Source: Arsenophonus sp. aPb
GTDB lineage: Bacteria > Pseudomonadota > Gammaproteobacteria > Enterobacterales > Enterobacteriaceae
Direction of reading: 5' to 3'
Assembly: GCF_029873475.1 (NCBI RefSeq)
Contig: NZ_CP123499.1
Coordinates: 999,616 to 1,039,615, forward strand
DNA length: 40,000 nucleotides
Shown: one piece after another, positions 16,392-21,174 of the stretch
How the letters are laid out: each line of letters opens with the position of its first letter
Position numbering within the stretch: position 1 is the stretch's first letter
Position numbers and translations under genes: made by a program
Notes under the pieces: model-generated
What the model was told of the DNA's origin: nothing
The model's database searches: none
What the model saw: only the letters and a program-made list of their open reading frames with translations

Positions 16392-16510
16392 TTATTCATC
16401 CCAAAATTAATTTTATTAAAAAGGCCACTTATGCGATTTAAGCGGCCTTGGAACATTAAAAATTTACTACGTGATTGCCTGCTTTTAACCACGTCAGGCG
16501 AGGTGGTTTG

Positions 16511-16561
16511 TGTATTTACCACAACACACAAAAAACGCTACTATGTGCTTACCACAACACA
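16511..16561 (+). promoter_or_regulatory. two 18-bp direct repeats (16/18 identical) upstream of the sieB-like gene, with a possible promoter
   Basis: TGTATTTACCACAACACA (16511-16528) and TGTGCTTACCACAACACA (16544-16561) have starts 33 bp apart. TTACCA-17 nt-TACTAT could be the -35/-10. Confidence 0.35.
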
Positions 16562-16580
16562 TAGAAATGAGATTTTAATT

Positions 16581-17102
16581 ATGCCTGATTGGGTTATGTC
16601 TGTTATTTCCTTTTTAAAGGGAAAAATTTCGGTGAGTTTTAGTATGTTTTGGTTAATGTTTGGTTTGATATTGTGGATATTTTTACCTGAGAGTTTTTTC
16701 ATTTATGTGGATTATAGGCCCATCTTGCCTAATGTTTCTAATTCACTTCTTCTAATTTTTTTCACAGGTTTCTTTGTTTCTAAGTTAGTGAAATTTAGTA
16801 TAATATTTTTTTCTACATTAAGAAAAAAGATAAAATTAGCAAAAGAAAAAAAAGATAGTGAAAACCTGATAAACAATCTTTCCAGTAAAGAATTAAATAT
16901 TTTGTATGATGCCATAATTGACGGTAAAAGGCTTTTTAAATTTCACAATAGAAGTCCATCTGCATTGAGATTGATTGAAAAAAACATATTAAAATATCAT
17001 GGCACTATCAAAGATAAACCAATTATGGGATGGTTTGAAATAAATAAAAAATATTATCAGATAATATTAAAAAAGTATGCTGATAAGATAAATCATCGTT
17101 AA
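16581..17102 (+). CDS. sieB: superinfection exclusion protein B-like membrane protein (173 aa from MPDWVMS)
   Basis: Two N-terminal TM segments (..LILWIFLPESF.., ..LLLIFFTGFFVSKLV..) are followed by a KKIKLAKEKK linker and ..LSSKELNILYDAI.. The layout is typical of the SieB family. It lies opposite to the early-left operon. Confidence 0.6.
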   Translation: MPDWVMSVISFLKGKISVSFSMFWLMFGLILWIFLPESFFIYVDYRPILPNVSNSLLLIFFTGFFVSKLVKFSIIFFSTLRKKIKLAKEKKDSENLINNLSSKELNILYDAIIDGKRLFKFHNRSPSALRLIEKNILKYHGTIKDKPIMGWFEINKKYYQIILKKYADKINHR

Positions 17103-17127: not shown

Positions 17128-17316
17128 TCAGAATAGGGCGGCGGCGTTTTTGACAATTAACTTATTTCCGCATCCTGGACAGTAGTTCATATCGTTTTCT
17201 TTCGGACCACCATCCATGAATTGAAATGTAAACCCGCAAGATGCTTCCCAGAAATAATCTGAATCAATCCAAGACCACTCACATTTTTTGTGATCTTTTT
17301 CGTCATTATCAGGCAT
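17128..17316 (-). CDS. small Cys-rich (zinc-ribbon-like) protein, 62 aa from MPDNDEKDH
   Basis: Has C..W...SCGF...YCPGCGNKL. The ATG at 17316 overlaps the stop of the N-like gene by 8 nt. Confidence 0.5.
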   Translation of the reverse strand: MPDNDEKDHKKCEWSWIDSDYFWEASCGFTFQFMDGGPKENDMNYCPGCGNKLIVKNAAALF

Positions 17317-17686
17317 TAGCGCTAATTCCAAACTGTGTTTTAGGCTTGCTGTTAAAACGTTTGGTGCTGTACATAGCAGTAGTTGGCATACAACAGTTAT
17401 CAAACGTATCTTTAACTTTTTTCTCAACATTTCCCTTAAACTGAACGATTAAATCAACGATAACATTTACCCATGTGTTAATTTTTTTACGTTTTGTGGT
17501 CAACTCTTTTTGAACACTGTTTTTTATGCCAAAGGCTTTATCGATAATGCTTTCAAGAAATTTTCTTTTAGAACGGCGGATATTTTCTTCAAGACGACGG
17601 ATCATCATTAAACGACCGCGCTTTTCATAACGACGCATTTTTGAGTTAGTACGACCGGTTCTGGGTAAGTAAATGATTGTTGCCAT
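17309..17686 (-). CDS. N-like transcription antiterminator (arginine-rich N-terminus)
   Basis: MATIIYLPRTGRTNSKMRRYEKRGRLMMIRRLEENIRRSKRKFLESIIDKAFG resembles P22 gp24 as I recall it (MTVITYGKSTFAGNAKTRRHERRRKLAIERDTICNIIDSIFG). Strong GGAG RBS. It sits left of pL. Confidence 0.55.
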   Translation of the reverse strand: MATIIYLPRTGRTNSKMRRYEKRGRLMMIRRLEENIRRSKRKFLESIIDKAFGIKNSVQKELTTKRKKINTWVNVIVDLIVQFKGNVEKKVKDTFDNCCMPTTAMYSTKRFNSKPKTQFGISANA

Positions 17687-17952: not shown

Positions 17953-18231
17953 ATGGCAGACTTTACTGTTCGTGTAGAATTACATGGTGCAAATGCTGAT
18001 GATTACGTATTACTCCATGACAAGATGCAAGCAAAAGGATATTTCAAAGAAATCATCCATTCAGATGGAAAAAGATATAAATTGCCCATGGCTGAATATA
18101 TAACTACTAAAAATAAAGCAGCATCTGATATATGCAGAGAAGTTGTAAATATAGCATCTGAGGTTAAAAAATATCCTGATGTGCTAGTTACAAAATCAGA
18201 AACCAGAGCTTGGTCTCTAAGTATCGCTTGA
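17953..18231 (+). CDS. hypothetical 92-aa protein, antisense to the pL transcript
   Basis: AGGAA RBS. Its promoter region carries two TTCCACAGTCAA repeats (17894-17905, 17927-17938). Confidence 0.65.
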   Translation: MADFTVRVELHGANADDYVLLHDKMQAKGYFKEIIHSDGKRYKLPMAEYITTKNKAASDICREVVNIASEVKKYPDVLVTKSETRAWSLSIA

Positions 18232-18414: not shown

Positions 18415-18980
18415 AACCTCTCCTTGAATAAATAAGTTTTAGCGATGTGTGACAGGTAACCTCTCCTGCTCAGTGCCGCGGTGTTTTTAATCATAGCCGA
18501 CCGTTCCATCAACGTATCTTTGGCCTTAGATAGCATATCCTTATGTTCGCTTAGGACGTTTAGGCTGCTTATCTTGTCCCGACCGTTTGACGATTGTCAT
18601 TCGTCATTCACACATCCCAAAACTTACTTGCTTGGCGCTACACTCTCGTAGTAGCCAACGCTCATGCCCTTGAGTCTATGTCGCCTCAGCCGCTAATAAC
18701 CGGTGAGAGTCTGGCTTTCTCTCTGCATGCTTTACCGGCGCACCTTCTTCTTTAATTAACCCTAACTAGCGTGCGTTGAAGTTTGCACCTTCATCTAGCT
18801 CTCAAGGAGACTCGGGGCTACTTCATGACAGTAGCTTGCAAGTTGCCCATCACTTAATTCACCATGATTAATATCTCCGTAGATGAAAACTTAACTACTA
18901 AATATTTTCAGGTAGTTCAAAACTAGGTGAAAATAAGAATTAACAGAGTATTAATCTATCAACTTGATATTGCCTCTCCA
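18415..18980 (-). other. ~570-nt ORF-free, G+C-elevated transcribed leader (candidate structured ncRNA)
   Basis: A hand count of seven 60-nt lines (18421-18840) gives about 47% G+C, against about 28-33% in two lines of the adjacent cassette. No ORF of 60 codons or more on either strand. Many local stems, e.g. UGACGA-7nt-UCGUCA, CCGGU...ACCGG enclosing GAGAG...CUCUC, and the long-range pair GAUGUGUGA/UCACACAUC. Confidence 0.35.
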
Positions 18981-19025: not shown

Positions 19026-19054
19026 ATTATCACTGATGGAGGTTTTATTGTCAA
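19026..19054 (-). promoter_or_regulatory. pL promoter
   Basis: The minus strand reads TTGACA-17 nt-GATAAT (-35 at 19049-19054, -10 at 19026-19031) and overlaps operator-like sites. Confidence 0.6.
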
Positions 19055-19069: not shown

Positions 19070-19180
19070 TTTTAATTAAAAAAACACAACACATTGATTC
19101 AAAAAGAATTATTTTTTGTAAATTTTTTTGGAAAGGTAAGAAATGGAGAGGAGGGCAATAAAAAACCCTCGGGGAAGCGA

Positions 19181-19537
19181 TTAAAATTTGGGTATGATAG
19201 GTAGATTCTCTATATTGAATCCTGACATATTTAGCAGGTTTACAATATACGTTCTAATATAAGGATAAGCTAATCGATGAAAGTTAATCTCAGCCATAAA
19301 ATCATTTAATTTACTACTTGAAATTTCTTTTTTAAATTTTAGGAAAAAGTTGTATTTGAAAGATAATTCTAATGTGTCAGCAATTAATAGTACTGTTTCC
19401 ATGGTTGCTTTAATGTTTTTTTTATCTTTCTGATCAATAAAGTAAAACGATGTTATAATTATGTTGCTTTTAGTATGAGATGTATTTTCTTCAAGCTTAA
19501 TCTCTGAAACGTTTGCTTTAGTTATTGTAAATTCCAT
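19181..19537 (-). CDS. SecB-like chaperone (118 aa)
   Basis: The N-terminus FTITKANVSEIKLEE resembles SecB FQIQRIYTKDISFEA. The C-terminus AYPYIRTYIVNLLNMSGFNIENLPIIPKF resembles SecB [28 protein letters not shown]. GAGG RBS. Confidence 0.6.
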   Translation of the reverse strand: MEFTITKANVSEIKLEENTSHTKSNIIITSFYFIDQKDKKNIKATMETVLLIADTLELSFKYNFFLKFKKEISSSKLNDFMAEINFHRLAYPYIRTYIVNLLNMSGFNIENLPIIPKF

Positions 19538-19544
19538 TTAAACC

Positions 19545-19775
19545 TCAAAGAGACATTCTCATAGTGTTATGAGTAACAGATTGACATTCAATCCAATGGT
19601 GAACTTCTTGCTTAATTGAAGATGATTTAACGTTAATCGTAATAGAGGTATTGCTTTGATCTAATTGATTGCTATCAGCAATTCCTGCACTAACAAGTTC
19701 AGATAATAACTCATTTCTACTCATTGATTTCAGACGAGCAATAGATTCTTTTGCTAGTTGCATTTGGCTTTTCAT
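19545..19775 (-). CDS. 76-aa protein, candidate antitoxin of the cassette
   Basis: ATGA overlap with the upstream gene, and a strong GGGAGGG SD inside that gene's 3' end. No recognised domain. Confidence 0.6.
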   Translation of the reverse strand: MKSQMQLAKESIARLKSMSRNELLSELVSAGIADSNQLDQSNTSITINVKSSSIKQEVHHWIECQSVTHNTMRMSL

Positions 19776-20344
19776 ATCACCCTCCCTCGTTGTACAACTG
19801 TCAATGAATTTTTGTCAATAGAACGTAATGGCTCCCTTATGCTTATAATTGTACAATTTTGAATCCTAGAGTTGTATATATTTTTTCTTGACCACAGATC
19901 AAGCTTGATATATTCACTCCTAATAATAGCATCACAACCTATTGCTTTTGCTATATAGTTGCATACCTCACAATCATTCTTGAGTGATTTTTCGAATGAT
20001 TTAGTTGATGAGATGTTATTTTTCTTCATAATACCAATTAGTTCATCTCTATAGTAATTAAATACTTTTTTCCCTTCTATAGAATCCAGGTTTAGTGGGT
20101 TATTTATACTAATATTAGCTTTAATTACAGAAAATTGTGTATATTTATAACGTTTTCTAATTTTATCGTATGAATGTCTTTTAGCCCAACACGAAGCATT
20201 ATGTTCTGGATCGCTAACTCCATCGATAAAAAAATAAGCCCCAGTTCCTAGCCATTCATCTTCCTTTGTACTGACGCGAAAATTACCACTCAGAATCATA
20301 TCTTCATTTTCAGCATTTGTACCGTGATAACCTATTAATTCCAT
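19772..20344 (-). CDS. 190-aa protein with H-Y-E ADP-ribosyltransferase-like motifs (candidate toxin; possibly DUF3990-like)
   Basis: IGYHGT (res 4-9; compare ExoA VGYHGT and DT SYHGT), GTGAYFF (res 33-39), RSEYI (res 142-146; compare DT SVEYI). Weak RBS. Confidence 0.55.
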   Translation of the reverse strand: MELIGYHGTNAENEDMILSGNFRVSTKEDEWLGTGAYFFIDGVSDPEHNASCWAKRHSYDKIRKRYKYTQFSVIKANISINNPLNLDSIEGKKVFNYYRDELIGIMKKNNISSTKSFEKSLKNDCEVCNYIAKAIGCDAIIRSEYIKLDLWSRKNIYNSRIQNCTIISIREPLRSIDKNSLTVVQRGRVI

Positions 20345-20407
20345 ATTAAAACCAATAAATTTGCATCCATTATTGTAATTACTCTTTTTTACTGCTCTCT
20401 ACCCACC

Positions 20408-20869
20408 TCACGATGCTCTTTTGGATTTTTTCTCTTTTTCTTTTAAAAACTCAGCTATCTCGTCTATGTGTTTCTTTTTGTTAATAATTGCTTTGATAAT
20501 GTCTTCTTGATCCTTTTCAGTAATGTTATTGAAGAGATCTAAGAAAATTTTGTCTTTTCGTGAAATCTCAATAAAATCTTGTTTGTGATGATCTAGGTCG
20601 ACAGCTTGATACATTTTGACTATTTCTTTGGCAATAGTAGGACTGAAATCATTTACAGATACTTTCAGAAGTTTTGCTAAAGCAACAGCATTTCGTAAAT
20701 TTAATGCATTTATTCCATTGAAAAGAGAATTAACAGCACTTTGTACAATGCCTAAATGATCAGCAACTACTGCTTGAGATAAGCCCAATTCCTTTTTTTT
20801 GGCGTTATATATAGCCTTTAATCGCTTAGCGTCTGCGAGCTGTTCCGCATTTAATGGTTTCTTTTTCAT
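20408..20869 (-). CDS. cI: CI-like prophage repressor lacking an S24 autocleavage domain (153 aa from MKKKPLN)
   Basis: The N-terminal ~95 aa closely parallel the lambda CI NTD. The C-terminal ~60 aa are charged and helical, with no S24 motifs. The ORF-track start at 20986 would run through pR and the operators. Confidence 0.9.
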
Positions 20870-20880
20870 AAAAAAAATTT

Positions 20881-20944
20881 TATCACCAAACGGGATAATT
20901 CCCAACCTCCTGCGGTGTTGACAATGAAATCTCTCAAGGTGATA
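20881..20944. promoter_or_regulatory. oR operators (three 17-mers, centres 23-24 bp apart)
   Basis: TATCACCAAACGGGATA (20881-20897), AACCTCCTGCGGTGTTG (20904-20920) and AATCTCTCAAGGTGATA (20928-20944). The last matches lambda OR1 TACCTCTGGCGGTGATA at 12/17. Confidence 0.6.
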
Positions 20945-20946
20945 AT
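20918..20946 (+). promoter_or_regulatory. pR promoter
   Basis: TTGACA (20918-20923)-17 nt-GATAAT (20941-20946), followed by the AAGGAG RBS of cro. Confidence 0.7.
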
Positions 20947-20970: not shown

Positions 20971-21174
20971 ATGAAACAATTAACACTAGCTGAATATGTA
21001 AATATTCACGGACAAGAAAAAACAGCTAAAACTTTTGGGATTTATCAAAGCGCTATTAATAAAGCCATTCATTCTAAAAGAAAAATTACAGTTTTTATTT
21101 ATGAGGATGGAAAAGTAGAGGCCAAAGAATTAAAGCCATTTCCATCTCAGCGTCCTAACAAAAAATTAAATTAA
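20971..21174 (+). CDS. cro: Cro repressor
   Basis: [56 protein letters not shown] parallels lambda Cro [56 protein letters not shown]. Confidence 0.92.

Follow-up and report, generated by a model that had tools for sequence, protein, structure and literature searches.

What occupies the interval between the cI-like repressor and the lambda-like pL promoter in a lambdoid prophage carried by Arsenophonus sp. aPb, the interval that holds rexAB in lambda, and what might it do for the lysogen? We addressed this question in a 40,000-nt stretch of the chromosome (NZ_CP123499.1, positions 999,616 to 1,039,615; hereafter called the window), where an earlier note, made from the letters alone, had described a cassette encoding an ADP-ribosyltransferase (ART)-like toxin, a small protein, and a SecB-like chaperone. 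The three open reading frames (ORFs) were confirmed at the coordinates and lengths given there; all are intact, translationally coupled, and on the minus strand: the toxin gene (gene 1, 19772..20344, 190 aa), the gene at the antitoxin position (gene 2, 19545..19775, 76 aa), and the chaperone gene (gene 3, 19181..19537, 118 aa). Our sequence comparisons make it highly probable that the cassette belongs, as a divergent member, to the CmdTAC (PD-T4-9) family of toxin-antitoxin-chaperone (TAC) systems, of the abortive-infection type, and that it is a moron lodged in the slot next to cI (the rexAB slot). CmdTAC, which is the same system as PD-T4-9 (Vassallo et al. 2022, PMC9519451; Vassallo et al. 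2024, PMC11618068; Mets et al. 2024, 10.1101/2024.02.24.581848), consists of an ART toxin of the diphtheria toxin family, a small antitoxin whose tail is disordered, and a chaperone resembling SecB (PMC11618068). It aborts infection by T-even phages: once the capsid protein has driven the antitoxin off the chaperone, GA sites in mRNA become ADP-ribosylated (PMC11618068).

The gene 1 product, 100% identical to QE177_04435 of the Arsenophonus sp. aPb chromosome, contains the three motifs in which the H-Y-E signature of ARTs had been recognized, namely IGYHGT at residues 4 to 9, GTGAYFF at residues 33 to 39, and RSEYI at residues 142 to 146. These motifs are not due to chance, as H7, Y37, and E144 are invariant in all 12 close homologues obtained from a word-index search. 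Searching 1.84 billion representatives with a profile then returned 1192 clusters, nearly all of them single-domain proteins of 180 to 200 aa, and an alignment of 148 family representatives revealed near-universal conservation of H7 (147/148), Y37 (148/148), and N163 (144/148), as well as of G33. The nearly invariant Asn163 lies in an S-R-x-P-N motif.

Two experimentally characterized systems served as comparators. The ECOR22-type cmdTAC was located in E. coli N2250 via a cloning primer listed in Table S8 of PMC9519451, and the O112ab:H26 system was recognized because an IMG/VR relative is 100% identical to an E. coli locus whose products (WP_097333619.1, WP_053886482.1, and WP_053886483.1) are the CmdT, CmdA, and CmdC tested by Mets et al. 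(10.1101/2024.02.24.581848). The window toxin aligned with the validated CmdT WP_097333619.1 over residues 2 to 189 with 35% identity (BLASTP, E 3e-34), and the profile built from the 148 relatives matched the ECOR22-type CmdT with an hhalign probability of 94.2% (E 1e-7); in the pairwise comparison with the ECOR22-type CmdT, H7 corresponds to H9 and Y37 to Y41, which is essential in CmdT. Within the PADLOC collection, the PD-T4-9_A profile was matched by 46 of the 148 family representatives, with no competing defence family.

The structural evidence agreed with the homology. An AlphaFold (AF2) model computed from the 148-sequence alignment had a pLDDT of 95.5 and a pTM of 0.91, superseding a first model from 12 sequences (pLDDT 68) that had given no significant Foldseek match. 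With the later model, Foldseek retrieved the catalytic domains of PARP2 and PARP1 (probability 1.00, E from 1.6e-4), the ART-fold toxin MbcT, and exotoxin A (2ZIT and 3B78, TM 0.42 to 0.44), and the family profile searched against the PDB matched PARP10, PARP14, PARP15, and PARP16 exactly across the His and Tyr motifs. The ART fold expected from a structure search was thus found, and the alignments together with the confident model show gene 1 to encode a CmdT homologue with a predicted diphtheria-toxin/PARP-type ART fold and H-Y-E residues. Searches of the cassette proteins in Pfam, in NCBIfam, and as single sequences against the PDB returned nothing significant, and there were no matches for the toxin by tblastn in 50,697 phage records or for the region by megablast against phages. 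We also noted more distant toxin homologues (27 to 37% identity) of ∼200 aa, with one of 272 aa, in genomes of high G+C content from Akkermansiaceae, Roseateles, Noviluteimonas, Methylocella, and others; no antitoxin or chaperone ORF is obvious downstream of them, and these ART genes may stand alone or have other partners.

The chaperone gave a second set of matches. The PADLOC profile PD-T4-9_C aligned with the gene 3 product over its full length (E 1.4e-7) and was matched by 10 of 10 chaperone family members. The protein shares 23% identity over 117 aa with the validated CmdC WP_053886483.1 (BLASTP, E 3e-9), and the family profile matched the ECOR22-type CmdC over its full length (hhalign probability 97.2%). 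Pfam SecB (PF02556) did not match the gene 3 product itself and was matched by 5 of the 10 family members (best E 2.1e-8); the top PDB match of the family profile was Haemophilus influenzae SecB (1FX3/1OZB, E 0.095). Aligned with E. coli SecB, hhalign reached 50.8% across 33 C-terminal columns and reproduced the register in which the earlier note had placed the two C termini. These searches show gene 3 to encode a CmdC homologue, which we predict to act as a SecB-like TAC chaperone.

Gene 2 is defined by its position and composition. Its start overlaps the toxin stop in an ATGA preceded by a GGGAGGG Shine-Dalgarno (SD) sequence, as had been noticed, and 7 nt separate its stop from the start of gene 3, with a GAGG overlapping the gene 2 stop codon. 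The N-terminal module (codons 1 to 33) is conserved and has a helix-former fraction of 0.67, and the remaining 43 residues (codons 34 to 76) form a variable tail with a polar fraction of 0.47, which by this composition is ChAD-like. A small ORF is present at this position in 5/5 three-gene genome loci and in 14/14 viral loci, and the two characterized CmdA proteins themselves differ greatly from each other (77 versus 121 aa).

We then examined the conservation of the cassette. The order toxin, antitoxin, chaperone, proposed from the window alone, is kept in all three-gene relatives: 5 genome loci (including one from a Bacteroidota metagenome-assembled genome), 14/14 viral contigs, and 4 loci found through the chaperone (3 from Providencia and 1 unassigned). 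Their surroundings vary. Photorhabdus carries the cassette in the same cI-to-N slot as the window, with an N-like homologue after it; others sit in a tail/baseplate-module slot of myovirus-type prophages, in the Arc/Ant region in Providencia, and, in E. coli, in P2 hotspots and at an integrase-proximal site. Between the window and Photorhabdus, the toxins are 79% identical while the flanking cI and N proteins are 37% and 34% identical. This comparison with related loci shows the cassette to be mobile. Few complete E. coli genomes carry either of the characterized cmdTAC types, the ECOR22-type junction being found in 1/5426 and the O112ab:H26-type cassette in 2/5426, and a blastn search of E. 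coli genomes with a Serratia cassette gave no match.

The cassette lies where the earlier note had put it. The gene order is cII, cro, pR, cI, cassette, pL, N-like gene, with the CII-like gene recognized by profile scans. A pL-like promoter on the minus strand (19026..19054, TTGACA-17-GATAAT, sigma-70-like, 11/12), accompanied by a lambda-like operator half-site (TCACTGGCGGTG), is placed 127 nt beyond the end of gene 3; 32 of its 47 compared positions agree with the divergent pR region, GCGGTGTTGACAAT among them. An N-like antiterminator gene (17309..17686, minus strand; phrog_271, E 4.4e-8) farther downstream is the marker of a pL operon beyond the cassette. Because this pL-like promoter resembling pR and the N-like gene follow the cassette, its description as occupying the rexAB slot is correct. 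On the other side, the cI-like repressor gene (20408..20869, minus strand) encodes 153 aa from an ATG at 20869 and matched Pfam HTH_3 (helix-turn-helix; E 5e-10) and PHROG transcriptional repressor families. The gap from its stop to the toxin start, previously counted as 60 nt, exists and measures 63 nt (20345..20407, minus strand); the terminator scan reported none in it, and its only promoter-like match is weak (20401..20372, 9/12). In the lysogen, pRM thus probably drives transcription of the cassette together with cI, by analogy with rexAB in lambda.

Several observations weigh against the assignment to CmdTAC or against parts of it. For the toxin, the pairwise alignment with the ECOR22-type CmdT is weak (E 0.01) and limited to the N-terminal ∼45 residues, and the score of PD-T4-9_A against the window toxin is also weak (E 5.5e-4). 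The third H-Y-E position is variable: the column of E144 holds Glu in 17 of the 148 representatives and mostly F, V, or L in the others, within the motif x-[N/D]-[F/L/V/E]-Y-I-K. Glu is found in the clade of the window toxin and in the validated O112ab:H26 CmdT, and we rejected Glu144 as a family-wide catalytic residue, since it is conserved only there; its catalytic role in the window toxin is assumed, because the column varies across the wider family. For gene 2, there was no match to PADLOC PD-T4-9_B, an hhalign probability of 0.2% with the ECOR22-type CmdA, and no BLASTP alignment with the O112ab:H26 CmdA. The protein ends in MRMSL rather than in an Ala-Ala ClpX degron, and its tail has a single aromatic residue compared to 4 to 8 in relatives. 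Finally, co-transcription with cI was inferred only from position and from the terminator-free gap.

The variable third position bears on what the toxin would modify. PARPs likewise vary at this position, between H-Y-E and H-Y-I/L/Y. One could suppose that the window toxin is a CmdT-like ART acting on a protein, tRNA, rRNA, or DNA instead of GA sites in mRNA, and so kills by another mechanism, given that identity to the validated CmdT is just 35%, that the third catalytic position drifts across the family, and that ART toxins with DNA, rRNA, and protein targets are known. Against this, the homology to the mRNA-modifying O112ab:H26 CmdT extends over the full length and retains the EYIK and SRxPN motifs, and the window toxin has no extra domain. 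We consider a different substrate unlikely and retain mRNA as the predicted target of a CmdT homologue.

The atypical gene 2 tail is best discussed together with its relatives. Both E. coli CmdA proteins require a terminal Ala-Ala for ClpXP-dependent activation, and ChAD recognition has been shown to depend on aromatic residues; in HigBAC, a TAC system of another toxin family, the HigA tail is not a ClpX degron. Among the antitoxin relatives of gene 2, only those of E. coli and Saprospiraceae end in AA, the others ending in LSF, LAF, IVF, or FAF. The departures of the tail could also be taken as decay, the cassette being an inactive relic in a degrading endosymbiont prophage, and Arsenophonus genomes carry many degraded elements. 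Yet 3/3 ORFs are intact and retain SD sequences and translational coupling, the catalytic residues are in place, the prophage regulatory, replication, and structural genes are intact, and near-identical chaperones (99% and 87 to 89%) were found in other samples. A relic is therefore very improbable in our view, and we continue to treat the cassette as a probably functional CmdTAC relative.

Comparison of individual segments suggested where the tail may come from. Relative to Xenorhabdus, the window proteins are 81% identical in the toxin, 88% in the antitoxin N terminus, 14% in the tail, and 32% in the chaperone; relative to Providencia, the corresponding values are 52%, 45%, 16%, and 59%. At the DNA level, a sliding comparison with the Xenorhabdus and Photorhabdus cassettes gives 67 to 93% identity from the toxin start to position ∼19680 and background values (25 to 50%) on both sides, which delimits a conserved "warhead" block common to these cassettes (19680..20344, minus strand), composed of the toxin gene and the first ∼32 antitoxin codons. 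The window antitoxin tail contains a W-[IV]-E-C...H motif common to the Providencia type only. The split identity pattern and this motif point to a recombinant in which one warhead type was joined to the other sensor type. We tentatively propose a natural chimera, which we rate slightly below an even chance: a recombination event near antitoxin codon 32 would have linked a Xenorhabdus/Photorhabdus-type CmdT and antitoxin N terminus (∼80%) to a Providencia-type tail and chaperone (59%), the tail being poor in aromatic residues and without an Ala-Ala degron. If so, a different trigger protein and a ClpXP-independent loss of the antitoxin would be implied. The arrangement would resemble the hybrid CmdTA-HigC system engineered by Mets et al. 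(10.1101/2024.02.24.581848). Since variable ChADs that co-vary with the chaperone have already been noted for HigBAC, the window recombinant would be an example of a known principle, not a new one. Separately, one relative with a chaperone of the window type has a 164-aa antitoxin (L031, 1083-1577), more than twice the usual length, which suggests that large expansions of the antitoxin tail occur.

If the cassette works like its E. coli homologues, the three proteins would form an inert complex in the lysogen, with a T:A:C ratio of 1:1:4 as in CmdTAC, in which the chaperone would hold the disordered C-terminal tail of the antitoxin and so keep the antitoxin stable. Upon infection by another phage, a structural protein freshly synthesized by the invader would compete for the chaperone; the antitoxin would then be lost and the toxin freed. 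The free toxin would use NAD+ to ADP-ribosylate single-stranded mRNA, translation would stop, and the infection would abort. Abortive infection or exclusion had been put forward, along with prophage addiction, as the likely role, and the homology to CmdTAC supports the first two by analogy.

The same architecture could serve mainly to stabilize the prophage, by killing cells that lose it or by locking lysogeny, rather than to defend the host. Toxin-antitoxin systems can stabilize mobile elements, the cassette is in the immunity region and probably co-expressed with cI, and the host is an insect endosymbiont whose exposure to phages may be limited. On the other hand, both characterized CmdTAC systems are prophage-borne abortive-infection defences, defence genes are known to concentrate in this slot (rexAB and HigBAC), relatives of the cassette occupy the tail-module and P2 hotspots where defence morons typically reside, and a SieB-like exclusion gene is nearby. 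This last is a 223-aa ORF (16431-17102, plus strand) with matches to PHROG SieB-type superinfection-exclusion families (E 2e-5 and 9e-5), and it is a candidate second exclusion gene in the same prophage arm. A main role in prophage addiction appears quite improbable to us, and defence remains our preferred reading of the cassette.

The base composition had been cited as a sign of a moron. The cassette, at 30.2% G+C, does lie below the window mean of 36.7% (8.8th percentile of equal-sized windows), and this part of the argument stands. However, cI (32.3%) and cro (28.9%) have an equally low G+C content, and only that of the pL-to-N leader is higher (40.6%), so that G+C content is weak evidence for a moron.

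Other features of the region complete the picture of the prophage arm. The pR-like promoter (20918..20946, plus strand), found by promoter scan, drives cro (20971..21174, plus strand; PF09048, E 9.6e-25). Right after gene 3 is a weak hairpin (19151..19170, minus strand; GAGGGU, an 8-nt loop, and GCCCUC; -10.1 kcal/mol) that the terminator scan did not pick up and that is at best a weak terminator. In Pfam and PHROG scans, the cI-like repressor has an HTH_3 domain only and no S24 peptidase domain; prophage induction therefore may not use RecA-stimulated self-cleavage. Photorhabdus has two tandem HTH repressor-like genes ahead of its cassette (L002, 4897-5892). Within the pL operon region, a 92-aa ORF on the opposite strand (17953-18231, plus strand) matches phrog_8894 (E 1e-32), a family of unknown function, and part of it is 79% identical in DNA to a Salmonella phage. 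Between pL and the N-like gene, ∼360 nt of the minus strand (18540-18900) reach 46 to 49% G+C in a 37% G+C window, and no minus-strand ORF of at least 40 aa is found between 18536 and pL. We rejected a structured RNA in this leader, as there was no Rfam match and no tRNA and the folding z-score was +0.59.

What is new here is modest: the family gains a host and a slot, and the sensor module, which includes the atypical antitoxin tail, appears to be chimeric. The earlier note had known of no described TAC with an ART-type toxin, nor of one in a lambdoid immunity region. Neither point holds, because the window toxin and chaperone are homologues of components of CmdTAC, which is exactly such a TAC and was described in 2022-2024, and because HigBAC was published in the same rexAB slot (Mets et al. 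2024). In the literature searched, we found no report of CmdTAC itself in this cI-adjacent position. The architecture had been read correctly from raw sequence, including gene 1 as an H-Y-E-clade ART and gene 3 as SecB-like; the novelty of such calls needs to be checked against recent catalogues of defence systems. The cassette extends the CmdTAC family to the prophage of an insect symbiont and to the cI-adjacent defence hotspot. It would also be a clean case from nature in which toxin and sensor parts were recombined at a definite junction within the antitoxin gene, useful for studying how TAC systems change phage specificity, without being a new kind of system.

We finally compared the cassette with the characterized systems. 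With the O112ab:H26 CmdTAC, it shares the T-A-C order, a 4-nt overlap of the toxin and antitoxin genes, and carriage by a prophage, and the GYHGT, WLGTGAYFF, and EYIK motifs of that CmdT are also present in the window toxin. The antitoxins are unrelated in sequence (76 versus 121 aa, ending in MSL versus AA), and the O112ab:H26 locus adjoins the integrase of a P2-like prophage, whereas the window cassette is beside cI. The ECOR22 proteins (RCP66309-11.1; 192, 77, and 129 aa) are close in size to those of the window (190, 76, and 118 aa); unlike the window antitoxin, the ECOR22 CmdA ends in LAA, and its locus is in a P2 hotspot between a replication gene and a portal gene. HigBAC of E. coli NT1F31 (Mets et al. 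2024) is the closest in position, being a TAC in the variable locus downstream of cI in a lambdoid prophage; there too a SecB-like chaperone acts as the phage sensor and the antitoxin tail lacks a ClpX degron, but the toxin is the RNase HigB and not an ART. Lambda RexAB occupies the same place between cI and pL, and an exclusion function expressed in the lysogen is likewise expected of the cassette; position alone is shared, as no Rex family was found in Pfam and PHROG scans of the window, and the RexAB mechanism is entirely different. The HigB1-HigA1-SecB(TA) system of Mycobacterium tuberculosis (Rv1955-1957) follows the same logic of a toxin, an antitoxin with a ChAD, and a SecB-like chaperone, with a toxin of another family and a chromosomal location outside any prophage immunity region.

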